DNA of 61,128 nt, counting the filler, from Dugesia japonica (Eukaryota): the NCBI GenBank assembly GCA_001938525.1. It is 6 parts of 6 records of this genome, joined end to end, with 100 filler letters (N's around TTAATTAATTAA, not from the genome) between each part and the next. Parts side by side here need not be neighbours in the genome. Positions count along the whole stretch, not along the records: positions 20,016 to 32,593 come from MQRL01573047.1; 5 more parts are not named here. One strand, 5' to 3'. A program made the translations under genes and the position numbers. The notes beneath the pieces were generated by a model. It searched no databases and was not told where the DNA came from. It saw only the letters and a list, made by a program, of their open reading frames with translations. This document shows positions 11,038 through 46,050 of this stretch, piece by piece (position 1 is the stretch's first letter; every line of letters starts with the position of its first letter).

Positions 11038-11285
11038 ATGCCCCCACATATATTGCTGCTTAAAAGTAGAACTATTATCATGTTGTTGAGAAATTTGATT
11101 TCTGAAGAAGGGTTTATGCAACGGTACACGATTGGTGGTTGAGTATCTTTCTCGAAATACAAACACTGAACGAATTATTTTTGAGTGCAATCGCGGTAAT
11201 GCAGTCATTATTCCTCGAAGCTACATCACCATGAAAAAATCTCAAGGTCAAACTTATGACATGGTGGGAGTTGACTGCAGCTTCC
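11038..11285 (+). mobile_element. Helitron RepHel PIF1-type helicase remnant
   Basis: MPPHILLLKSRTIIMLLRNLISEEG/LCNGTRLVVEYL and ITMKKSQGQTYDMVGVD match the PIF1 motifs PPHxLxLK..LLRNL..GLCNGTRL and TIxKSQGQT. Frameshifted and internally deleted. Confidence 0.88.
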
Positions 11286-11763
11286 GGTATTCGGCAAAAT
11301 CAAAGCGGGTATGAGATCCGTTGGACAACAGGAAGAGACAAAAACTGACAAAGGCACTGATGTCGAGGAGAATAAGATCTCTTGAGCAAACAAACGAATA
11401 AGACAATACTGAGGCGTCTAAAAGATGTTTTTAGCAGAAGCAAGGTCCTTCTCGACGAATAAGATGTGAACTACAATGGTGGAATACCAATCGAAAGTGA
11501 CTAAGAATACAGTTATATAATAAGTCACATATAACTGTCAGTCAGTGAATTAAAAATATTTTTGTCGGCCATATTTAATCAGTGTTCACGTAAAATTAGT
11601 CTAAGTGTGTTGACTAAATTCAAAACATTCGAAGAAAAATAAATTTCAAATTTTAATTTTGCAAGAAAACCAGCAGTGAAGAAATTATCTTGTTCAGCAG
11701 CAACAACTTTGATCCAAATTTCATTTGGATCCAGTTATTTTTACTTCTATTAAAATTTTATCT

Positions 11764-12993
11764 TTAGTCTCTATTATTAAATGTATTCAGATAAATAAAA
11801 TAAAAATTGAAATAATAAATATTATTCAATAATTTATCTAATAATAAATTATATTCAATATTTTTACTTTTAGAGTTTTCATTTTCTGATTCATATTTGC
11901 TAATTTGCAATTTCATATTTTCATATTTGTCAAATAATTGATTATATGAATTATCCAAATCATCAAATTTGAACTGCAGATTTCCATTATTTGATTTCAA
12001 ATATTTGATTTCACTTTGCAGTTTAACATTTTCTAATTCATTTTTATTAATTTCTAATTTTAGATTTTCATTTTCACTTTTCAAATTATTCAAAAATTTA
12101 TTTTCGGATTCTAAATTATTAATTTGTTTTCTTAAATTTTCTATTTCGTTTCGTAAATTTTTATATAATTGATCTAATTCAATATTTTCGCATTTCCATT
12201 TTTCACTTTCTGATTTATATTTCTGTTTTTTTGATTTATATTTCTTAATTTTCAATTCATAGTTATTATTTTCTGATTCTAAATCGTTAAGTTGTTTTTT
12301 TAATTTTTCCGTTTCATTTTCTAAATTTTTTTTTAGTTGATCCAATTCAGTATTTTTACGTTTCAAAATTTTATTTTTTGAGTTATATCTCTTAATTTCT
12401 GATTCATACTTGATGGTTACATTTTCAATTTCCAAATTATGTAAAAATTTCTTTTCTGATTCTAAATTATTAATTTCAGATTCATCTATGTTTATTTGTA
12501 ATTTTTCATCTTCATTTTGTATTAACAAAAATTTATTTTCTGATTCTAAATTATTAATTTGTTTTCTTAAATTTTCTATTTCATTTTGTAAAATTTGATT
12601 TAATTGATCTAATTCAATATTTTCACATTTCGATTTTCTACTTTCTGATTTATATTTCTTATTTTTAGATTTATATTTCTTAATTTTTAATTCATGGTTA
12701 TTATTTTCTGATTCTAAATCATTAAATTGTTTCTCAAATTCTTTAATTGTATTTTGTGAAGTAATATTGAGACGATTTAATTCAATATTTTCATATTCCA
12801 TAATTTCATTTTCTGATTTATATTTCTCAATTTTTAGTTTATAATTGTTATTTTCTGATTCGATGTGTTTAATTTTCAATTTCAAATTTTTATTTCTGCC
12901 AGAAATTTGATTTTTTAACTTATTTAATTGATTATTTCTGGATTTTAAATATTGAATATCGTTTTCGAATTTTTTGAATTTGTCTGCTACCAA
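11764..12993 (-). CDS. Long K/E/N-rich coiled-coil protein (ORF or large exon) with internal repeats
   Basis: 409 open codons in DNA of ~20% GC, heptad-like NLESEN repeats, and a ~66-aa unit duplicated. A likely splice acceptor (TTTTCAG) lies at ~13011. Confidence 0.7.
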   Translation of the reverse strand: MVADKFKKFENDIQYLKSRNNQLNKLKNQISGRNKNLKLKIKHIESENNNYKLKIEKYKSENEIMEYENIELNRLNITSQNTIKEFEKQFNDLESENNNHELKIKKYKSKNKKYKSESRKSKCENIELDQLNQILQNEIENLRKQINNLESENKFLLIQNEDEKLQINIDESEINNLESEKKFLHNLEIENVTIKYESEIKRYNSKNKILKRKNTELDQLKKNLENETEKLKKQLNDLESENNNYELKIKKYKSKKQKYKSESEKWKCENIELDQLYKNLRNEIENLRKQINNLESENKFLNNLKSENENLKLEINKNELENVKLQSEIKYLKSNNGNLQFKFDDLDNSYNQLFDKYENMKLQISKYESENENSKSKNIEYNLLLDKLLNNIYYFNFYFIYLNTFNNRD

Positions 12994-13194
12994 ATTGTGA
13001 TAAGTTACTTCTGAAAAGAATATTATTTATGTAAAAATTTTCAAATTAATTATTTAATTAATTACTAAATTAATATTTCAATTTTGTTTGGATTAAAATA
13101 TTAGCTACATTAACCCACATCTGATCGAAATGCAATCTTGTGTTTTTTATCAAAACCATTTTTTTATAATTTTGTTTTAATAAATAGTAATTAA

Positions 13195-15769: not shown

Positions 15770-16896
15770 AGGCTACGTATCCTGCGATTTGATTTATCGA
15801 AATTTTCAAGTGAATACTTATACTTGATTGTGATTGGTCGAATTTATGAAACTATTTATAATTGACTACGTATACTCGATTCTAATTGGTCAAGAACTGG
15901 GTACTATTTCTAAGTGACTACGTATACTTGATTATGATTGGTTATAATTTGTATATATAAATACATGTGCGGCAATTCAAATTTCATTTTGACATAACCG
16001 AGCGATACTTCAACGTACAGGTATTGCCATTAGTATCGTTGGATGCGTAATAACGTAATGATTTTTGATTAACGTCTAATACATTTTGAATAATTTTAAG
16101 TAATTTTGATTATTTTTTTAAAATTTTTGATTAATTTGTATTGAATTGTGATTAACATGTAATGATTTTTGATTAATATATAATAAATTTTTGAATAATT
16201 TGTAATAAATTTTAATTCAATTTTATTGAATTATTTATTTATTGCTAATTTTATGAATATTCTGTTCACTGTAAAAGAAATTTGAATGCAAAACATTGCG
16301 CGTCCAATGATACCAAATTTGTGACTATTCGATAAGATAATACAAACAAAAAACAAAAATAATAATAATAACCTTCAAAATGAAAATAAATGCCTTGAAG
16401 GAAAAGAAATTAATAACTAAATAAATAAAAATAATTATAATTTCTTTCCTTAATAGCTTTTACTGTCACGCTTGATTGAACTGAGGATTGCACCATGATA
16501 ACCGTCACGTTATTATGCATCTAATGATACTAAAGGCAATACCTGTACGTTGAAGTATGGCGCGGGAATGTCAAAACGAAATTTGAATTGCCGCACATGT
16601 ATTTATGCGAAGGCTTTCCGCAATAATCGATGCAGCTGGAGAATATACCATATATTAACGATATANTGTTTTCTGTATAAATATATATAATATAAATGTT
16701 GTAATTTTTTGTACTGGACAATTTAATGTAACAGACTGTATATACAAATTACAACCAATCACAATACGTAGTCACTTAGAAATAGTAACAAGCTCTCGAC
16801 CTAAGACAATCGAGTATACGTAGCCACTTATAATATAGCCTCATAAACTCGACCAATCACAATCAAGTATAAGTATCCACTTGATAAGTAGCCTAC
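15770..16896. mobile_element. Long inverted-repeat (foldback/TIR-type) non-coding element
   Basis: 15806-16056 is the reverse complement of 16507-16606 plus 16739-16884; the right arm carries a ~130-bp insertion. Each arm has three ~52-bp subrepeats. Confidence 0.8.
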
Positions 16897-18214: not shown

Positions 18215-19600
18215 TCAGGTTTTCAGACTGTCTGCATTTCGTTTTTCCTCCTGACGTTCCTTCTTTCGTAAATTTTTATTGTGTCTGTTATCCTCGAGCG
18301 ACATCATTTCCCTCGTCTTTAATTTATTCCGAATTGTACTGTTACAATTATCAGGGAGCTTTGATTCTTTGACCAGACTGAGCGCGCCATTACTTGTTTT
18401 AGGCATAGAGAGCCTTAGATATTTTCTTGTTTCCGTGCCTCTTATCCCATCCATGAAGTCTTCAAACACCACGGTCTTTATTTTGTCTTCTGGTATTATT
18501 CTTTTTACTAAACTGATCTATTATTTCAAGTATGTATTTTTTTCGTCCACTTGTTTTCCGCATTAACCCACATATATCTGTGAATAAGACTTCAAAAAAA
18601 CTGGTAGTTATTAATCTCTTTGTCGTCTCTAAAGTTGCAGTCGTCACTACTTTGGTTTTATGACAAATTTCAGAGCTACGAACCATCTTCCGTATTTGGC
18701 TACAGGAATTTTTTGCAATGTATTTGTCTCTCATATATTTGTACACCTTTCCAACTTTTGCATGACATCTTAATTTGTGTGTTTCCTCTATTGATTTCTG
18801 TATTTTGTCATCCGGAATTTTAATTTTCTTGATTATGTTTAATTTACGCTTTTTTCTCTTTATATTGCGTCCAGTACTCTTGTTTTAATCTTCCCTTTCT
18901 TGGCATCTTCATGTGATAGATAGGCACCTTACATGTCTAGATAGGATTGCTATGTTGAATTCCTTTCTATATTTCAAAACTATGTCTAGACTACTCAGAT
19001 AATTAATCCATGTCTGAAATGAAGATGTAATAAGTTTCTTTGTCGTCATCATGAAAGTTAGAGCGTTATGATATGTTATAAAAGAAAATCTTCTGCAATA
19101 CAAGCAATGTTTGAAATGCATGCAGAAATAATAAACAGCCAATAACTCTTTTCAGGTAATGCAATATCCCTTTTCATGACTCGTCATTGAATGTGATCCA
19201 TAGGCAACAACCCTTCCTTCTTTATCTCGATATGACAATACTGCTCCAATTGTATCGAAACCCGCATTTGTATTTAACATAAATTATTTGTTTATGTCTT
19301 GAAAACACAATGTTAGCGCAGTCAGACCCTAAAAAATATTATTTATTTCATTTGTCCATTCTAACTTTTTGTTGCTTGGTCTGCTACAGAATTGTTCCAA
19401 TATCTTTGATTTGCTTGGTCTGCTACAGAATTGTTCCAATATCTTTGATTTGCTTGGGTAGTTTTCTATACACTTCCTGTAGTAATTACAAATTCCTAAG
19501 AAACTTCGCAACTTATTTTGTGTTTTATCCAATGTGTACATCCTACATCCAATTTATCTGCCACGAAAACATCTTCTTTATTTCCAATTATTTTCTTTAA
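18215..19600 (-). mobile_element. Rearranged, degenerate Ty3/Gypsy remnant (RT thumb, RNase H, integrase start, then a gag-like piece)
   Basis: LRSFLGICNYYRK, NAGFDTIGAVLS, YCITxKELLAVYYF..TYHNALTF..FQTWINYLSS, TDICG..KYILEIIDQFSK, then FMDGIRGTETRKYLRLSMPKT. Confidence 0.85.
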
Positions 19601-20060: not shown

Positions 20061-20501
20061 TCAACGTAAAAAGGGTAGAACCCCAACAGAATATTCCGTG
20101 GCCTTATAGGACCATGAGCATTGCTTAATTTCTACACCCTCCTCTCCATCTTTCTCAAATTCACCATGTATGTCAAATTGAACTTTACAATTTTCAAATT
20201 TCCCAAGCTTGCTTTCCACCTGATTTTTAAAATATTCGGAAACGTAAACACTTTTCATTTTCTGATCTTTTACTTTGAACTGGAGACTGATGTAGGCTCC
20301 AGGAAAATCGGATTTTCTAATAAAATCATCGGTTATTGTTGTGATTCTCATCCTCTTCTGGTCCATATTATCTTCTATCAATTGAATTTTCTGTTTTCTT
20401 TCTTGCATATTTTTCTTAGCAGATTGATGCTCATCATCAATTTGTTTATAGCAAATAGATTGTAAATCAATTAATCTGTATATACTAAAATTATTCACCA
20501 T
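20061..20501 (-). pseudogene. Maverick/Polinton pPolB N-terminal-like ORF, truncated at the scaffold edge
   Basis: KVQFDIHGEFEKDGEEGVEIKQCSWSYKA aligns with KIQFGINVEFVKE..EEIKTCPVSSRA of the clearer pPolB remnant at 33593-33823. Intronless. Confidence 0.6.
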
Positions 20502-20669: not shown

Positions 20670-21079
20670 TCATTGATAGTCATACATTATTTGTTTGATA
20701 TTCCATAAGGGAACCATGTCATCATCATAGTTATCTTGTTTAAAACCATTCAGTGCAATTTCGAGTCGACCCTTTATTAAATTTGGCATCTTTTCTAATT
20801 TTCTACCTATAATATACAAAGTTGTTATTTTATGACCCGGTAAGTAAGGATTATCAAGAGATTTTTCTTTAAACTCTAAATCAGCATCCAACTGTTTCGT
20901 TGCTTACCTCATTTTCTCCAGATCGTATTTACTCATATTCTTTATTAGATACATGTTTTTGATTTTTCAATTTCTACACTGTCCTCAGTATTTGTAATAA
21001 TAGTTTATCTAACAAGTGGAAATAGTGATTTTTAAATTTCCAAACGATTAATTGATGATCGAATTATTTTGTTGTTCAT
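20670..21079 (-). pseudogene. Disrupted intronless ORF of unknown function in the Maverick cluster
   Basis: ATG at 21079, several stops, and an open C-terminal part DADLEFKEKSLDNPYLPGHKITTLYIIGRK..DMVPLWNIKQIMYDYQ. Tightly packed between the TBP-like and pPolB-like ORFs. Confidence 0.45.
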
Positions 21080-21122: not shown

Positions 21123-21599
21123 TTATATAATATTCTTTAATAATAATTTTGATTGATTTAAACAATATTGTATATATTTTGCAATTTCTTTGGTAATTTC
21201 ATGATAATCCAATGACCTTAGTACACGAATAATCACTTTTCCACTGGTAAAAACATTGACACATAATAACTTGTATTTGGTAACTTTTAATGCTGAAAAT
21301 AATTCTGGTTCGAACCAACAATGTAATACACTACTCAATAAATCCACTCTATGTTCAAGATCACACGTATCAGTAATTGATTGAATACCATATATTTGGA
21401 TATTGAGATTTATGCAAGTAATTTGTTTATCGATGATCTGTTTCTTGCATCCCATGATTCGACATTTTCCAGATTCAAAATCAATTACTGAATAATCTTT
21501 CATTTTCACTACATATTGCCTGGGTTTCTTCCAGGTAATAAATCGAAGATCTGAAAGTGAATCAATTAGATGAGCTCTGTAATTAATATTTGATAACAT
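21123..21599 (-). CDS. Divergent TATA-binding-protein (TBP)-fold protein, intronless, Maverick-associated
   Basis: Two TBP half-repeats. LSNINYRAHL..VIDFESGKCRIMGCK matches QNIVSTxxL..LIFSSGKMVCTGAK. IQSITDTCDLEHRVDL..FEPELFSAL..VNVFTSGKVII matches IQNMVGSCDVKFPIRL..YEPELFPGL..LIFVSGKVVL. ATG at 21599; the ORF track extends it to 21662. Confidence 0.85.
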   Translation of the reverse strand: MLSNINYRAHLIDSLSDLRFITWKKPRQYVVKMKDYSVIDFESGKCRIMGCKKQIIDKQITCINLNIQIYGIQSITDTCDLEHRVDLLSSVLHCWFEPELFSALKVTKYKLLCVNVFTSGKVIIRVLRSLDYHEITKEIAKYIQYCLNQSKLLLKNII

Positions 21600-21680
21600 T
21601 GTATAATAACGAATGAGCCATAACCATGAGCTTATATACTCTTTTTGTATAAACAAAATCATTTCTATGGTTTCTGTAAA

Positions 21681-22310
21681 ATGTTACTACAAACAAACGT
21701 GGTTTTTCAAATAGTCGGTTGCAGTGGAAGCTGCAAAACATAATTTGTTTGCAAATTACTACAAAGCAAATTGTTTCGGACAAAATTCAAAAATATTTAT
21801 TAGCATCAAGATGGTGGAGGTGAAGCTGGATTGACTGATGGTGCATTTTGCAAGTTGAGAAAGATTACGATAATTGCTGGATTCGATGATGATTGGTTAA
21901 AGAGATTAAATACTGGGGATGTTATTGTAATCGATGACTTGTTTCAAGAGGCAAATAAGCAGGCTGATTTTAATAATCTCTTTACAAAAGCTGCTCGTAA
22001 TGGTAATGTAACTGCCATTTTCATAACCCAGAATCTTTTCCATTAAGACGGTATGTCTCGTACACGTAATGTAAACGTTCATTATTTGGTTTTATTCTGA
22101 AATCCCCGAGATCAAACTGTGGTTGATTATGTTTCTTGTTAAGCCTTTCCTCACAATAAAGAATTTTTATCAGATGCATTTCTCGATGTTACTACAAAAC
22201 CACATCGATATTTATTTATTGATTTTTTCCAACAATGTCCTGATGATGAACAAGTAAAAACCAATATTTTTAATTCGGAAGGAATAACGGTTTACAAACC
22301 ATTGGTATAA
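21681..22310 (+). pseudogene. Maverick/Polinton A32/FtsK-like packaging ATPase, disrupted
   Basis: Walker A IVG/CSGSCKT (frameshift), Walker B VIVIDDL, then LFTKAARNGNVTAIFITQNLF, SRT..N.HYLVLF.NPRD, KPHRYLFIDF and KTNIF, as in Maverick ATPases. Five in-frame stops. Confidence 0.92.
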
Positions 22311-22384
22311 ACAAAACTAATACTTATTTTCTTGTCTAAATTAGAGTAGATTAATGATTATTTTTCGGTTAAACCTTTAGTTTA

Positions 22385-23420
22385 GAAAAGTTATGTCCAT
22401 GACATTTTTCTTGTTTTTGAAAATCACTCTCAAGTACATCCGTTTTTGGAGTATATGAATAACTTGCATCCAAATATAGGCTTTAAGGTTGACGAAAAGA
22501 TCAATTCAACTATTTTATTTCTTGATTTGCTTATTGAAAGAAAGAATACTTCATTTGAAACAGAGATATATAGTAAGAAAACTGATACCGGTTTGTTTAC
22601 AAATCCTGCCAGTTTTAGTGACATAAAATATAAAAGTAATATGATTAAAGGACTAATTCATCATTCTTGGTCTCCCTCTTTTAGTTTTATCAAAGCAGAC
22701 AAGAGTCTAAAAAAATTAATTGACTTACTTCATCATAATGGGTACTCTAAATTGTTTACGCACAAATTAGTTTAAGAAACTTTGAATAAACTTAATAGTG
22801 ACTTGTCTCGTGTTTATGTATCTGAGGTTGAAGAAACGGATCCTAAAATTGTTTTATCTTTACCTTATTCTGAAGGCGTTAAAAATTCAAACTTTCGATT
22901 GAAAATGCTCTTAGGAATATTTAAAATATAAAGGTTGTATCTCAATCTCATAAGGTTATAAAAATGTTCATTAATATATCTATGACCCCTTGTGCTCTGA
23001 TCTGGTCTATCATTTTAAATGCTATGAATGTAACGCCCCATACATTGGAGAGACTTCTCAACATCTCTGCACCAGAGTTCAAGAGCATAGTCGAAGTAGT
23101 TGAAATAGCAATATTGTTGAACATCAAAGAAAATGTATAAAATATATATGGTTTTCTGATTTTAAAATCTTGCCCAGTGAATTTAATAACTATTGGGAGA
23201 GAGGGATGTGTGAAGCTCTTTTGATAAGGGCATTAAATCTTAAAATTAATGTTCAGTTGACGGATTCAACATCGCTCTTAACATTATTTTATTGATTATT
23301 TATTGAGATGGCACAATTTGAAAATATATAATCATTTAAACTTTGTAAATAGTTTGTTTTAATATTCTTTAATTGTTTGATGATGACGGTTATTCAGTCG
23401 AAATTGATAGCAAATAAATA
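22385..23420 (+). mobile_element. 5'-truncated Penelope-like retroelement (RT C-terminal half, GIY-YIG, 3' pLTR-like end)
   Basis: YVHDIF..FLEYMNNLHPNIGFK..ILFLDLLI..YSKKTDTG, NGYS, LVYHFKCYECNAPYIGETSQHLCTRVQEH, and EALLIR..KIN. Confidence 0.92.
23372..23416 (+). ncRNA. Degenerate minimal type I hammerhead ribozyme at the PLE 3' end
   Basis: TTGT-TTGATGA-T-GACGG(TTATT)CAGTC-GAAA-TTGA-TA-GCAA: core (C>T)UGAUGA/GAAA, stem II, near-palindromic loop III, stem I. Confidence 0.6.
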
Positions 23421-32801: not shown

Positions 32802-34213
32802 TTACATAATATATATTTTAATTATATTCTCGATTTCCTTAAAATTATTAACCAACAAAAGTTCAACCGAATCCGGTAAATGTTTTTGGAAATGACGATC
32901 ATCCGCTGGGAGTACTGATTCAAAATGAATATATATTACGAATGGCAGAGTGACGGTTTTAGAGTAATCTTTGAACTCTAAATCTTTCTCTGGCGGCATT
33001 GTATATAGCGTTATGCCAGTTTGTATTCGTTCGCAAATTGCTTGATGCTTCTCGTAAGCATTGTTGTCCCTGAATCTGTTTAGGCAATTTTTGCATCAGA
33101 TTGACTGTATTCGTTCCCGGTTCTTTTTGATATCCCGATTCATTAATCTATTGATATTCATTACCGCCGTGTAATGAAATCTGTTTCCATTTTCTAACAA
33201 TAATAAGTTTATTTTTTCTCCATCACAGACCGATGTAAGATGTCTAAATTTGGGTGTTGCATTACTACATCTTCAACAATCAGAATAACACGTTAATAGA
33301 TAAACCTGGATTTTCTCTCTCAAATTTGGGTATGTTGGTCAATTTCATAGGTAAATCTTCATAATCATATACTAGTTCCGACAAGTACTTACTATATTTG
33401 CTAGCTCTGCATTTATTGTTTCCAATTGAATTTTACTTAAGTTTAACTAATATACTATACAGGAAACATTTATTATCTGTGTTCTGAACATTTATAATAG
33501 CNTTTTTCTTGTCCAGTTTCCTAGGAGTTGTAATATAACTTGATATCAGTATTAGTAGTAGAATATAGTTGCAATTTTAGTTATTTTGAAATTCACTTCA
33601 AGGTTCTGCTCAAAATCCAACTTAATCCTATTTCATTTCCTATCTCAATTTTCTCATTTAGTGAATTTATTCCATCAATGAAAAATGTATCACTTAATGG
33701 AACGGCACGACTAGACACCGGACACGTTTTTATCTCCTCTTCTTTAACAAATTCGACATTGATGCCAAATTGTATTTTAACATCTCGTAGCTCCTCTATC
33801 GTCTTATTTAGTTGATCAGTCAATGAATTCGGTAAAACTATTTCTCTTGTATTCTATGATGAGATATCAACTTTTAAAATCTGGTGACGGCACAAATCAG
33901 TTTCAATCATCACATCGTTTATCGATCCTACAACAAAACACTCTTCCGTTACTTCATCCAAATCAATACTATCCAACACTGCGTCATATTCATCCACCAC
34001 TCGAAAATTGTTCCATTCTTTTAACTTTTGTTTTTTATTTGCCCGACCACTTATTTCATTATTTAAAATTGCTTTTAATAGTTTCTTTTAAATTAATGTA
34101 AACTTTTCTATGTGGTCTGAGTGCAATCTATAGAAATTTATGTATGTACCTAAATCTGCAGACTGACAAGTCGGACATATGTAATACTTTTTCTCAACAA
34201 ACGTTTTGCCCAT
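32802..34213 (-). pseudogene. Maverick/Polinton protein-primed DNA polymerase B (pPolB), N-terminal half, disrupted
   Basis: N-terminal CPTC..H..H zinc-finger-like segment, GLSWIL (cf. GSGW), SSYITTPRKLDKKxAIINVQNTDNKCFLYSIL, IPKFERENP, INLLLLE..HYTAVMNINRL, CKNCL..H...C, and LPFVIYIHFES (ExoI, cf. FVIYADFES). Confidence 0.9.
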
Positions 34214-34779: not shown

Positions 34780-35962
34780 CATATTTAAACCATAATGTTG
34801 ATTTTTTTAACCACAATAAGCAATGTCCCTAGGTTTTTACTCTGCATATATGCTGTATGGAATGTTTGGTTGTTACTTGTAAATGCTCTAGGTTTTTTGT
34901 TATTGCTGCTTGTTGTGTTATTATCTGTATATTTTTTATGAGCTTGTATATATTGTGTTTGTGTATAAAATGTTCCAAATCGAGATATTCAAATCGTGTC
35001 TAAAATGAAAAAACAATTAAACATTTTTGTCGACAATTGTGTCAAACTTGTTACTCCATCTGTAGATGGTGGTTTACTATATATATATGTATGTATAAAT
35101 AAAGATATAAATTTTAAGGTATTCAAATATACATTGTAAAAAGTGTTCATACTTGTGTCCATTGGACAAAGCCTGGTGAGTGGGGGTATTGCCACGCCGA
35201 TAATGCTGCCTCCTCCACTTATAGCGCTTGTGAATTTGATAAATTGATACTTAAAACGCTACGAGGAAGAGTAATACGCCTGTTCCCAAAATTATTGGGG
35301 GAATGCTTTTTATTATTTCACTTTCAGCTTCTGGATTTTTTGTGGTACCTCAAAGTTGCTGAATTTTATCCTTATAGTATTGATAATTTTTATTGTATTT
35401 GCTTAAATCGGAGTTTTGATTTCTTATTCTATAATTCATATGTTAATTTAAATTTTCTGGTCAATAATTTATTCTTTTAATCGGGTTTTGAGTAGAGTTA
35501 GGTATTTTATAGAATTTTGTGGGAGTTGATGTTGTCATTCGATTTATAGTTTTAGTCGTTTTTAACTCTTCGGGAGTTGATCTCTTTATTTGATTATTAA
35601 TTTGAGTTGTTTTAAATTCTTCGGGATTTATGTACCTAAAATATATTGGAAATGTTGTTAAAGTGATAGTTTCGGAAGCGCGAGTTACAAAATCTATTCC
35701 CCCTATCCAATTGATGGTAGATTTATATTTAGTGCTGGGTATTAATCCGATATGTTCAATGTATTTGCCCGAACCATTGAAATTTCCTCCTACTATGCAG
35801 GCATGTGGGTTCATAGAAGGTTTTCTGTAAAGGGATTTCGAATGTAAATTTATGTGAATATATACCTATTTCTACCATAGGTTAAGAGCCTTTTCTAGGT
35901 GATAAATACGGAAAATCGGCTGAACAGCTTGTTATGATTGATTATTATAGTACTACTGACAT
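34780..35962 (-). pseudogene. Candidate env-like third ORF downstream of integrase
   Basis: Signal-peptide-like MSVVLxxSIITSCSA, ectodomain-like NPHACIVGGNFNGSG..NWIGGIDF, a Thr/Pro-rich repeat and later hydrophobic stretches. Broken by stops and frameshifts. Confidence 0.4.
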
Positions 35963-38900
35963 GATCGGTAATGAACTTTGTGATTGTGATCTGTTATTAT
36001 ATTTGTGTGATTTTGGAGTTATCATTTTGGTTTCTGCTAGTTTGCACCTATTAAATGCGACTACTGTAGGCTCATTATTTTTATTCTTTATCACTTGTAG
36101 GCTTGTATCTGTTACCTTCACTACTTTGAAAGGTTTTTTAAATGGTCTGGCCAGTTTGTTTGTTAAACCCTTTTTTGAATTTGGAGTTTTTATCTGCTTT
36201 TTATCTCCAACTTTAAATTGATGTGGTTTCGCATTTTTGTCATAATAAACTTTGTACGGTTCTTGTTTGAATTTTACTCTCAATCCAGCTTGTTTATACA
36301 CTTCATGTATTGTTTCTTGCATTTTTGTAATATAATCCGGATTGTCCATATATTGTTATACAATAGGCTCGAATCTATCGGGTTGTGATTTTCTCTCAGG
36401 TACATTAAATAAAATGGTGAATATCCAGTTGCTTCGTTTTCTGTTGTATTATGAGCGAATAATGCTGGTTTAATAAGTAAATTTCAATCGTTTTGATTTG
36501 TATTGACAAATACTGATAATCTGTTGCATAATGTACTAGTACATCTTCCTACAAGACCGTCTGTTTGTAGACGGTATAATGAAGTATTTCTTTTTTTGAA
36601 TATTGAACATTTCATTGAATCTTTTAACTGTTTCGCTTAAGAAATTTCTACCTCTGTCCGGCAATAATTTTTTGGGTGCTCCATATTAAAAAAAAAATTT
36701 TTCCACTAATAGTTTTGCGACTTTTTCGGCTGACTCGTCTTTGGTGGGGAATGCTTCAGCCCACTTTGTAAAATAATCGCTAAATACNCAAATATGTTTA
36801 TTGCCTTTTATTGTAGTTGGTAATTTGCTTAGGAAATCCATAGCACATATTTCCATTGGTGAACTTAGTACTGGTATTGGATGAAGTGGTACTTTTGTTT
36901 TTATTCTAGTGTGCTTTCTGGTTGCGCATATTGAACAAGCTTTACACCATTGTTTTACATCTTCCTGAAAATTTTGCCAATAATATTTCTGTAAAATTCT
37001 AAATGCTGTTTTTCTACTTGATAAATCGCCACCAAGGGTACCATCATGTTTTTGAAGAAGTAACATCTACTTTAATGAATCAGGGACAACCCATAAATAT
37101 TTTCCTATATTGTCATATACAAGTAGATTCTTGTATATTTTATACTTCGTATTTTCGTTGAGATTATTTCGTATTGATTTGATGATTTTATCCTTTTTTT
37201 GTTCGTTTAAGAAAGTTTTATCATTTGTTCCTTCAGTTATTATACCCATTAATTCTATTGTTTCTACGTCTTTTATATTAGGAATTCTTGATAATGTATC
37301 AGCATTTCTGTTAGCTCTTCCGGGCTTGTATTTAATTTATATATTCACATCCTGGATTTTCATAGCCCATTTTAATATTCGGCTGGATGTATCTTTGTTC
37401 TTTCAAAGACCTTCAAGTGGTTTATGATCTGTTCGTATGGTAACTTCTGTTCCATAGATAAATGGCCGAAATTGTTTCAATGCGTATATTATTGCATAAC
37501 ACTCCTTTTCAATTGTTGAATATCTAGTTTCTGCTCCTTTTAACATTTTACTTGCATATGCGAATGCAGTCTTTATTTTTCTCTTCTTGTCTGAGAACTG
37601 CTCCCACTGCGTATCCGCTTGCGTCTGTCATAATTATAAATGGTTTGTCGAAGTCTGGGTATCTCAATATTGGTGCTATTATTAATTTTTCTTTTAATAT
37701 ATCAAAAGCTTTCTGTTGATTGTTTCCCCATAGTTTTTGTATTTTGCTGAGCTTTCGTCGATTTTCTCAGTGATCATCACATTTTTACTTTCTCCTTTTG
37801 TTTTTAAATCTTTTGTTAATTTCACTAGCGGGGCAGATATTTTAGTAAAATCCTTTATGAATCTTCGATAATATCCAACTAATCCGTTATAACTTTGTAG
37901 TTGTACTGTTTTTGGTATTGGGAAATTCTTTACTGCTTATATTTTATCTGGATTTGGTTGTAAACCTTTTGATGAGACAATATGACCTAAAAATAATAAC
38001 TGTTTCTTTGCAACCTAGACATCATATTTTCTAAGTTTATTAAATGCTGCTCAAATGATTCTGACGCAATCAAATTATCGTCCATATATACTATTACATG
38101 TTCCACATCTATTAGTACTGTATTCATCAATCTCTGAAATGAGGCTGGTGCGTTTGTTAAACCAAATGGGATTCTTGTAAACTCGTATAACCCATCTTCG
38201 GTTACAAATGCAGTCTTTTCTCTATCCTGTAATAGCACGTTAAGACCATAAAAACCTTTATTGGCGTCAAATATAGCGAACCATAGTGCTTTACTTAATT
38301 TATTAAATTGCTCTTGTATTTTCGGGAAAGGATGCGTATCCTTTTTAGTATCTTCGCTTAACTTTCTATAATCTAGACACATTCTGATTTTTCCATCTTT
38401 TTTCTTTACTGGCACTACCGGTGATGCTCATAAAGAGAAGCTTTGTACTATTATTCCATTGTCTTTTAATTCTTTTATTTGTCATTTGACTTCCTCTCTT
38501 AATTCATATGGTGCATGGCCTTTGTTTGATGGGCTTGGCACTACCAGTGCCAATGGCGTGTTGTATAATATCTGCTTCACTCATATAAAATTCATGATTT
38601 GCTAAAACATCTTCATATTTATCTATTAGTGCTTGTAGTTGCTGTCGCTGACGCGATGTTAAATTGCTTGAAGTTATTTTGGTTTTATCGTAAACTTTTG
38701 TTTGCTTAGGTATGATTTTATCATAAATTAGTGTTTCTTTTACTATTTGCTTTTGTTGTATAGGGTTATTATCATTAATGGTAATTTCATTTATTTCACA
38801 GTCCTCGTTTTTTATATATAGTTTACCTAATTTCATACCTGGGAGAAAATTAACATCTTGATTATTATAATTGGCGATTCTTATAGGCATGTTTCCATCT

Positions 38901-39350
38901 TTTGGTACAAAGCATCCGTGTACTATTGATATATTAAATTTTTTCTCTAATTGACTATTTGGTTCAAAAAAATAGGTATTTTCACTACGGAACCATAATT
39001 TTACAGGCATTATACTTTCGCATGAATATTCTATTTTTGCGTTGGACTTTAGATATAAATCTTTATTTACTTTTTCATTATTTACTGGAGCTGATTTTGA
39101 TAATTTAAATCCATAATAAATCCATTCCCAAAATACAATCTTGTACCCCTTGATCTACAACTCTGAATGGGTGTTGTATATTTTATTTTTCTATGGTAAT
39201 ATTACAGTCTATTATCCGTTTTATAGGTAATTTGTGACCCGTAAATGATTTTAATTCCTCTGACAGTCTCGTATCGAGATTCTCTTGTTGTTTTTTGTTA
39301 AGAAATATTTCTTTTATTATTGAGCATGCTGCTCCAGTATTAATGAAGTT
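35945..39350 (-). pseudogene. pol: Gypsy pol (protease, RT, RNase H, integrase)
   Basis: ORF fragments 38504-39010, 37987-38415, 36686-37066 and 35945-36349 carry the canonical motifs in Gypsy order. Confidence 0.93.
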
Positions 39351-43588: not shown

Positions 43589-46050
43589 TCAAAAATTCTA
43601 TTTCTGGTAGAATTTCGGCCCAGTCCTGAATTTATTTATCCTGTAAACTAATATGAATAGTATCTCTTATATTTCAAAATCTTCTTTCAATTATTCCATT
43701 ACTACCATGATGATATGGACTTGAGTATTGGATTTCACAATTAAATTCCTTAGCTAATTGTGGGAATAGATTTGATTCAAATGATTTTCCACAATCTGTG
43801 TGTATTATTATCGGTGCACCATATTACAAAATCCAATTACTTTTTAATAATTTAAAAGTGGTGTTTTCATCTTGAAGTGCAACTGGATTGAGAGATATAA
43901 ATCTACTGAATTTATCAATTATAGCTAAAATGTATTGTTTTCCATTTAACGTTTTCTTTAAAGGACCACAAAAATCAATATGAATGATTTCAAAGATGTC
44001 ATCAACTGAAATACTAATAATTTTTTCTTTTGTTTGAGTTGTTTGTGTTTTTCTTAATTGACAAATTTTACAACTTTGAGTAACCGCTTTTACAATTTCT
44101 TCTAAGCCTTCCATATCACAAATTTCACTTATATGAGCTGCCATTTTTCGAAATACTATATGACATAATGATTTGTGTTCATTTCTTACAAATAATTTTC
44201 TACATTCTAAAGGAATCCAAATTTTATTATTATTTGTCATTATGATACCATTAGAAAACTTAAATTTTGATTTCATTTCACCATTTTTTTAAGTTACCTT
44301 TGATTATATTAATTTCTTCAGAGTTTTCTTGCCATTTATTACTATTTGTTTTAAGCTCAATTGCTAAGATTTATTTTTTCATTTTCCCTTTTTTTGCGTC
44401 CTCATGATTCATTTGACATTGAATACATGTCTCGCAGTTATTTCTCAACATTGCGTCAGCGTTTTAATGACATTCTCCTTTTCTGTATTCCATAACCATA
44501 TCCAAACTACTTAAATAATTGATTAATGTCTGGAATTTTGGAGTAATCGGTTTTTTAGTATTAATCATAAAAGTTATGGCTTTGTGATCAGTTCGAAGTT
44601 TAAATCTTTTCCCGTATNNNNNNNNNNNNNNNNNNNNNNNNNNNNNNNNNNNNNNNNNNNNNNNNNNNNNNNNNNNNNNNNNNNNNNNNNNNNNNNNNNN
44701 NNNNNNNNNNNNNNNNNNNNNNNNNNNNNNNNNNNNNNNNNNNNNNNNNNNNNNNNNNNNNNNNNNNNNNNNNNNNNNNNNNNNNNNNNNNNNNNNNNNN
44801 NNNNNNNNNNNNNNNNNNNNNNNNNNNNNNNNNATAGGAGCCTTCATTAATTCTCGTTTCAAAGCTTCAAAACTTTGTTTACATTGATCTGATCAGATTT
44901 ATTTGTTTTTATTGTTTGTACAAGGTTTCTCTAGTGTTTTGAATAATCTTTAATAAATTTTCTGTAGTAAATTGTATGCCCTAAAAATCCACAAAGTTTT
45001 TACAAACACTTAGGTTTTTCAAAATCTTTAATTGCTTTTATCTTTTCTGGATCTGTTTTTAAACCATCTTTTGAAATGATTTGGCCCAGAAACCTAATCT
45101 CAATTTTCATATATACACATTTATCAGGACTTAGTTTTAAACCTGAATTTCTGATTTGATTAAAAACATTTTCCAATATTTTTGTATGCTCTTTCTCAGG
45201 TTTAGAAAATATCAGTATATCATCAAGATAAACAATTACTTCCTTCCTATTTAAGGGTCCTAACACTTTTTTCATTAATTTTTGAAATGTTGCTGGTGCT
45301 GCAGCTATTTCAAATGGCATTCAGTTGAAACAAAATTGACCAAACCTTGTAGAAAATGTCGTTTTGGATTTTGAACTTTCCTCTAATTCTACCTGGTAAT
45401 ATGTATTACCCACTTCTATCGTTNNNNNNNNNNNNNNNNNNNNNNNNNNNNNNNNNNNNNNNNNNNNNNNNNNNNNNNNNNNNAATGGTCTCTCCGTTAT
45501 ATTATTCAATAATCTAAAATCCAAGCAAATTTTAATGTCTTTTTTCTCTTTCTTCCAAACAAAAACTAATGGACTATTCCACTCAGAATCATATTTTTAA
45601 ATGATATCCTTTTTTTCCATTTGTAAAATAGCCTTATTTATTTTATCTTCTAAACGAATAGGTTGTTGCCTAGGATTCACTACAACTGAACCACCGTGGG
45701 TAACAATTTCATGTTTTAATAGTGTTGTCTTACCTACATCCCATTTATTTTTCATAGACATTTCTGAAAATCGTTCAATTATATCANTAATATTTTTATT
45801 CACTTCATTTTTAAAGTTCATAGTTTTTATTTCAAATATTTCTTTACCAATATAATTTAGCATTTATAATTTGATATTAAATTTAAATAAAAAATCGATT
45901 CCTGCAATGACACTAGAAGAAATATTTTCTGCAACATAAAACCTAATATATTCTGTTTGATTATTAAGTGTAATTTTTAACATAATACTTCCTATTATTT
46001 TAAGTTGACTTTCATTAGCACAAGTAACATTAACATATTCACTTTTAATT
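43589..46050 (-). mobile_element. pol: Degenerate Ty3/Gypsy pol (PR end, RT, RH, IN), same family as 1325-2748
   Basis: SEWNSPLV, CLDFRLLN, MPFEIAAAPATFQ..VYLDDILIFS, RTDHKAITF, IHIDFCGPL..DKFSRF. Aligns closely with 1325-2310 on the opposite strand. Confidence 0.93.

Follow-up and report, generated by a model that had tools for sequence, protein, structure and literature searches.

What is a gene with the TBP fold doing beside the packaging ATPase of a Maverick/Polinton element? The question is raised by 61,128 nucleotides of DNA from Dugesia japonica (assembly GCA_001938525.1; the whole of this stretch is called the window below), in which a first-pass annotation had read a TBP-fold transcription factor gene inside a Maverick gene cluster. 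The DNA of the window is AT rich and eukaryotic, with numerous gaps and retroelement pieces. Table 1 gives the positions of the features that bear on the question.

Table 1. Features of the window at and around the TBP-fold gene
Feature	Position	Strand	Basis and remarks
Short TBP-fold gene, 158 aa	21123..21599	-	Open frame, Pfam, AlphaFold2 model; likely decaying
Maverick A32-type packaging ATPase pseudogene	21681..22310	+	Five in-frame stops, single frame; relatives match Pfam Pox_A32
C1 relic, predicted T7 gp2.5-like single-stranded DNA-binding protein	20688..20999	-	Profile match, E 1e-5 at Z=100
146-aa ORF, multicopy in the genome, membership of the element uncertain	20061..20501	-	No family match
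Frameshifted N-terminal fragment of a Maverick protein-primed polymerase	32829..33823	-	34-49% identity to residues 1-337 of the L006 polymerase
TATAAACA box, candidate late promoter	21648..21655	+	33 nt before the ATPase start
Second TATAAACA box	22306..22313	+	At the ATPase end; relatives have one there before the next gene (C8)
TATATAAG, host-type TATA-like box upstream of the TBP gene	21631..21638	-	Sequence; predicted function
TCATT, which we take to be an initiator-like element	21612..21616	-	22 nt after the TATA-like box; predicted function

The reading frame is open over about 158 codons, as first described, and encodes both TBP half-repeats, which end in FESGK and FTSGK, together with an EPELF motif. 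An in-frame ATG upstream of position 21599 would give a product of 179 aa; relatives start at the ATG at 21599. The expected TBP fold was found by profile: against PF00352 the protein scores 29.8 bits (cut-off, 22.9), the match lying on the C-terminal repeat, and intact relatives score 63 bits. The protein also matches solved TBPs by sequence. An AlphaFold2 model built from a 99-row alignment has a pLDDT of 95 and was compared with known structures by Foldseek as well as by structural Z score; TBP structures align with it at Z 12.0 and an rmsd of 2.9 Å over 147 residues that span both lobes, and the best non-TBP row reaches Z 5.8. The only helix in the model lies at the C end (residues 133 to 157), and the N-lobe helices are absent. 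Likewise, the region of N-lobe helix H2 is deleted in the alignment of the short type of this protein, and long-type relatives retain it. The TBP-fold gene is real, and as modeled it encodes a two-lobed saddle without N-lobe helices.

The residues that make contacts in cellular TBP were followed through 122 short-type relatives. Three of the four intercalating phenylalanines had been described as kept, and F41, F101, and F117 are indeed conserved in 99 to 100% of the relatives; the first, described as lost, is unconserved whichever alignment register is used (K25 or Y29). The EPELF stirrup is likewise retained, with E97 present in 99% and E99 in 100%, and the two C-lobe stirrup glutamates that match this pair are TFIIB contacts in the accessible text of Ravarani et al. 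(PMC7221094). New invariant residues on the DNA face (N4, N6, R47, M49, C113, and N115) accompany family-specific motifs (N-x-N-Y, R-x-M-G, and C-V-N). The conserved phenylalanines and the new invariant DNA-face residues together suggest that DNA specificity has changed but has been maintained. The protein thus resembles cellular TBPs (PF00352; eukaryotic and archaeal) in its saddle, in three of the four intercalating phenylalanines, and in an EPELF motif with both TFIIB-binding glutamates, but it differs in its low identity (~20%), in the first phenylalanine, in residing on a mobile element, and in being a bare core of ~150 aa without an extra domain. In the model the short type also lacks N-lobe helices H1 and H2 and the basic patch for regulators. 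The basic N-lobe helix is described in the same accessible text (PMC7221094) as the common docking site of TFIIA, TAF1, Brf1/2, Mot1, and NC2; because the model has no N-lobe helices, this docking helix would be missing from the short type.

A search of 1.84 billion protein representatives returned 123 clusters at 50% identity, one of which (P0128) is a cellular-type TBP, and a metagenome scan with the TBP yielded 38 loci. A Maverick ATPase, integrase, protease, or polymerase gene is present at 14 of these 38 TBP-selected loci and at 9 of the 13 that measure at least 3 kb, the remaining 4 carrying a shared gene for the predicted single-stranded DNA-binding protein (SSB); when TBPs are grouped at 85% identity, Maverick genes occur at the loci of 11 of 23 groups. 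Two loci, L006 and L015, are near-whole elements with the TBP, the ATPase, an rve integrase, putative capsids, and a polymerase bearing endonuclease VII. The hallmark genes found in relatives, namely, an A32 ATPase, an rve integrase with a chromodomain, a C5 protease (Peptidase_C5 in L025, E 1e-7), the endonuclease VII-bearing polymerase (a match to a PHROG DNA polymerase in L006, E 5e-20), and PLA2, are those of Mavericks/Polintons (adintoviruses; Polintoviricetes). The putative capsids are labeled from gene order and from motifs that we take to be diagnostic, with a weak double-jelly-roll match in one of six (E 0.039) and no sequence match in the PDB. An independent scan based on the ATPase found four loci, L042 to L045. 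At L042, found by its ATPase and not by its TBP, a longer TBP gene stands immediately before the ATPase; L045 (20 kb) is a TBP-less Maverick relic, and L043 and L044 are so short or broken that they do not bear on the presence of a TBP. The linkage on which the first-pass reading depended recurs, and the TBP-fold gene belongs to a clade of Maverick/Polinton elements that bear an integrase. The gene is under purifying selection in intact relatives: among 231 pairs from 22 sequences, the 26 with dS between 0.05 and 1.5 give dN/dS values of 0.11 to 0.45. When viral contigs were scanned for TBP, the ATPase, the polymerase, the capsid, and cellular-type TBP, only three distant virophage-like loci and two viral-contig TBPs were obtained.

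Several other observations were made at these loci. Host-like accessory genes (ubiquitin-conjugating enzyme, dual-specificity phosphatase, RING finger, leucine-rich repeat, and PLA2) lie near the TBP gene at L015:225-719, L004:4008-4316, L030:1710-2168, L033:1304-1843, and L042:300-686. A putative minor capsid gene is present in two tandem copies at L015:5616-7684, and L026 has two tandem C3-SSB units. The Maverick fragments L042 to L045 are located within bacterial MAG assemblies, one of them a mussel symbiont MAG, and are probably eukaryotic or viral contamination. One plant TBP model of 305 aa (P0218) has three half-repeats and is probably a gene-model artifact.

The origin of the gene was approached with a tree of 78 rows, in which those outside the Maverick type were three eukaryotic, two archaeal, one halovirus, and two viral-contig TBPs (L047 and L048). 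The 70 Maverick-type proteins form one long-branched clade (support, 100/99) that lies apart from cellular TBPs; the proposed comparison with cellular and archaeal proteins thus returned a separate clade, as judged against only eight outside rows. The N-lobe helices are present in long types and missing from short types, the window copy among them; support for the short types as a single clade is only 64/41. Long-type proteins of ~160 to 180 aa in which both helices are kept (L042:969-1469, P0096, P0105, P0115, and others) offer a natural series for the study of helix loss. Because no animal TBP, TRF2, or TRF3 is among the tree rows, no donor can be named. A single long-branched clade with no identifiable donor among the eight outside rows points to an old acquisition of TBP rather than a recent capture from the Dugesia host.

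The 81 bp that the first-pass annotation had counted between the TBP gene and the ATPase ATG at position 21681 were confirmed. The two genes are head to head, and the gap holds both of their signals back to back, with TATAAACA facing the ATPase and TATATAAG and TCATT facing the TBP gene. Unbiased k-mer counts in 124 upstream regions gave ATAAACA and TATAAAC as the top 7-mers. We report the occurrence of ATAAAC within 90 nt upstream of each gene after removal of near-duplicates. It precedes the ATPase in 8 of 8 relatives (at 31 to 47 nt), the putative major capsid gene in 6 of 6 (at 32 to 83 nt), C8 in 5 of 6, and C16 in 3 of 3, which amounts to 22 of 23 genes against ~2.3 expected from shuffles, with none reversed; distances from the ATG are mostly 31 to 47 nt. 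In contrast, the box precedes none of 25 TBP genes and none of 8 C3 genes. Fisher's test for this late/early contrast gives a P value of 1e-14, which overstates its strength because the grouping was drawn after the data were seen and the loci are kin. Elsewhere in the structural module the box is patchy (putative minor capsid, 4 of 6; pX, 1 of 6; protease, 2 of 4). Upstream of the TBP gene, a canonical TATA is present in 7 of 25 relatives, and TCA(T/G)T or TCATA occurs within the last 30 nt in 15 of 25. No box stands before the ATPase-region, C8, and capsid ORFs of the TBP-less L045; the TBP-less controls consist of this one decayed animal-type element and three distant virophage-like contigs, two of them near-identical. 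The ATPase has a conserved Y-K-Q end in L013, L019, L025, L030, L032, and L036, and at least in L025 and L036 it is TATAAACA that encodes it; this end may be kept for the promoter of the next gene rather than for the protein.

At L030:376-415, the TBP gene is split by a 40-nt GT...AG stretch of the length needed to explain the frame offset, and a viral TBP gene thus likely contains a spliceosomal intron. Similar GT...AG stretches lie upstream of the SSB and C5 exons and of some C2 genes. The likely introns point to nuclear transcription by Pol II. In L002 to L012, L022, L023, L026, and L035, C3 (a short acidic ORF) and C1 (the OB-fold SSB) resemble a pair of exons from a single spliced gene.

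Against a viral reader of the box, host TBP is able to read TATAAA, and ATAAACA fits the forkhead consensus. On balance we think that the viral TBP probably acts as a late-gene switch. Host TBP would drive the early genes, among them the viral TBP gene itself, which would be made early from its host-type TATA promoter; the viral TBP would then bind the TATAAAC box upstream of the packaging and putative capsid genes and, once bound, would recruit host TFIIB and RNA polymerase II to these late genes. Loss of the N-lobe surface may free it from regulators that dock there, allowing escape from host Mot1/BTAF1, TAF1, TFIIA, and Brf1. By Pfam, no TFIIB or RNA polymerase match was found among 52 + 90 locus ORFs, those of the near-whole L006 and L015 included, although spliced or divergent genes could escape such a search. 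This negative result, the box confined to certain gene classes, the retained TFIIB-binding glutamates, and the likely introns lend indirect support to the first-pass suggestion that the element may redirect host Pol II to promoters of its own. The neighboring gene C2 was considered as a short TFIIB and ruled out; by eye, it resembles a small membrane protein. A fuller proposal, which we put forward tentatively and hold to be nearly an even call, is that a large animal Maverick clade runs a self-encoded early-to-late cascade with one minimal TBP, whittled stepwise from the long to the short type until the DNA face and the TFIIB stirrup were left, which would read its own TATAAAC, use host TFIIB and Pol II, and be invisible to Mot1, TAF1, and TFIIA.

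The same box could instead be read by a host factor, either host TBP or a forkhead protein, with the viral TBP serving as a decoy that damps host transcription by sequestering host TFIIB or by sitting on host TATA boxes. Such a role would suit a protein whose TFIIB-face glutamates are its best-kept surface while its N lobe has eroded, and a box that matches a forkhead site and is absent before some structural-module genes. However, the three DNA-face phenylalanines and N4, N6, R47, M49, C113, and N115 have been kept across 122 relatives, the orientation and distance of the box are fixed like those of a core promoter, and the single TBP-less animal-type relic is without it. We therefore regard a decoy as unlikely, though it deserves to be taken seriously, and continue with the late-gene switch as the preferred reading.

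Whether the copy in the window still works is a separate matter, and here the first-pass annotation had allowed for either selection or chance as the reason for its open frame. The window TBP departs at 10 of 40 columns that are invariant in six intact TBPs (intact proteins, 0 to 11%), a load equal to that of the dead ATPase, which departs at 23 of 102 columns. Lineage divergence explains part of the departure of the window genes, since even an intact ATPase, the most divergent one (L025), departs at 21.5%. At near-invariant columns the window TBP departs at 4 of 29 (102, 105, 111, and 126), as much as only 6 of 122 relatives do, and few of the 123 proteins compared show as much damage. Seven of eight listed differences from other genomic copies are at codon positions 1 and 2 (among the sites listed, 40 of 422). 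RNA reads from two runs, mapped at 82% likeness, numbered 5 and 385; they lie on both strands, and ~60% continue into unlike sequence.

These counts bear on the idea that the window copy was kept by selection, as a domesticated or otherwise functional gene, while the rest of the element died. Its promoter-like elements are intact, and zero stops against five in the ATPase has a P value of ~0.03 to 0.08 in a conditional test and 0.005 to 0.035 under a Poisson model, neither of which allows for the ORF having been picked because it was open. Against selection stand the missense load shared with the ATPase, a long terminal branch (0.45, versus 0.16 for the sister), the loss of two residues from the short helix of the C lobe, seven residues found in no relative, and the finding that none of the 390 RNA reads is at least 99% alike, although strain differences could hide the copy. 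We consider selection on this copy improbable. Given a missense load equal to that of a dead gene, its frame is probably open by chance, and judged from its sequence the copy is likely a nonfunctional relic.

The ATPase carries the five in-frame stops reported for it, but the frameshift also reported was not borne out, as a single frame runs over 206 aa with 65% identity to the intact ATPase of L006; the Pox_A32 match found in relatives scores 28 bits. On the other side of the TBP gene, the C1 relic sits between that gene and the 146-aa ORF. The fold of an intact C1 relative aligns with T7 gp2.5 at Z 8.1 to 8.5 and an rmsd of 2.6 to 2.8 Å over 101 to 103 residues, values that barely exceed those at which a match may reflect no more than a common arrangement. 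The 146-aa ORF had been taken for a co-oriented pPolB-like gene, a reading that we abandoned: Pfam, PHROGs, the ESM Atlas, locus profiles, and a longer-protein search gave no polymerase match, and the best pairwise BLAST hit had an E value of 1.1, although a very divergent N-terminal piece could escape. The polymerase fragment listed in Table 1 is 11 kb from the TBP gene on the same strand, with other repeats between, and is either part of the same element or a separate insertion.

The predicted SSB encoded by C1 is the commonest neighbor of the TBP gene (~14 of 38 loci after removal of two low-complexity members), and the TBP gene is often near the packaging ATPase, an arrangement that would also fit a role in DNA replication or packaging, in which the protein would bend DNA at the termini or the origin, instead of one in transcription. 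We judge this quite improbable, given that the EPELF stirrup has no known role beyond TFIIB-type binding in the accessible text of PMC7221094, that the TBP gene changes position among loci (it follows a MAEL-like gene in L021, L024, L025, L028, and L034), and that early genes group together regardless.

The Maverick remnant in the window is a 2.3-kb fragment. Of the gene cluster first proposed, the adjacency of TBP and ATPase stands and the rest does not, as a profile search found no integrase, protease, or capsid of the TBP-linked Maverick in the window; the integrase matches that do occur are on retroelement pieces. The element being fragmentary, no terminal inverted repeats or target-site duplication were seen among the 25 longest of 405 inverted pairs in the window. 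Directly after the ATPase, positions 22386-22928 hold a retroelement-like reverse transcriptase fragment without a Pfam match, presumably Penelope-like, which seems to truncate the Maverick; reads with loose ends fall at 22325-22348, just past the ATPase.

Elsewhere in the window, remnants of LTR retroelements (integrase, reverse transcriptase, RNase H) and a Pif1 helicase fragment occur at 1328-2316, 43590-44610, 18465-19553, 35945-39010, 45000-45320, and 11099-11311, and two of the LTR-retroelement remnants are 87% alike in inverted orientation. A 420-codon open frame at 11764-13026 encodes coiled-coil repeats based on 21-nt units and has no clear family. An inverted repeat at 15957-16606, with 107-nt arms that are 89% complementary and spaced by 436 nt, is a possible MITE.

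With a window so crowded with unrelated repeats, and with Pfam and JGI labeling the relatives simply as TBP, a host TBP paralogue or retrocopy might have come to lie beside a Maverick ATPase by chance, but this is refuted by the Maverick-linked relatives and by the multicopy state of the TBP-ATPase stretch, which is spanned whole by >3,000 contigs in each of two runs from the host species, and it also sits badly with a clade set apart from cellular TBPs at 100/99, so that we give it practically no credence.

Among known systems, most Nucleocytoviricota encode their own RNA polymerase. Their TBPs resemble the Maverick protein in being viral TBP folds (BFVD matches, down to E 4e-7) and, in the accessible text of PMC7221094, in having lost the N-lobe regulatory signature. 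According to the same text, the stirrup glutamates of viral TBPs are mostly variable, and their own TFIIB is nearly always encoded. In contrast, the glutamates of the Maverick TBP are invariant, and its loci gave no TFIIB or RNA polymerase match. The closest working model, by analogy, is the TBP mimic of beta- and gammaherpesviruses (KSHV ORF24, EBV BcRF1, and HCMV UL87), a viral TBP-like factor that steers host Pol II to late genes (PMC7498053, accessible text) and acts through a variant TATT box. ORF24 differs in being large, in working within a six-member complex, and in binding the Pol II CTD via an extra domain, whereas the Maverick TBP is a bare core with a stirrup. The MELD viruses of Starrett et al. 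(2021; PMC8502044) are midsize linear double-stranded DNA viruses with an adintovirus-like PolB and a TBP-like gene; in the accessible part of that paper the TBP is listed in the legend to Fig. 5, an entry that does not establish that it belongs to the same family as the Maverick TBP. The main text of later Maverick surveys, as far as it is accessible, mentions neither TBP nor TATA. Beyond the Starrett legend, the literature searched describes no Maverick TBP family or TATAAAC box, although subscription journals, figures, and supplements may hold one.

For this family the window copy itself, probably a relic, adds mainly another host. No virions of animal Mavericks have been seen, according to the accessible part of a recent preprint (bioRxiv 10.64898/2026.06.19.733378), and a dedicated factor together with a defined box would make the timing of Maverick capsid genes testable. 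The short TBP is a natural deletion experiment on which TBP surfaces initiation needs. If the late-gene switch is true, it would separate Mavericks that use the host nuclear polymerase from virophage-like elements that borrow giant-virus machinery. If the minimal-TBP cascade is true as well, it would be the smallest known viral takeover of Pol II initiation, and TATAAAC would mark, at the sequence level, the time at which Mavericks make virions.
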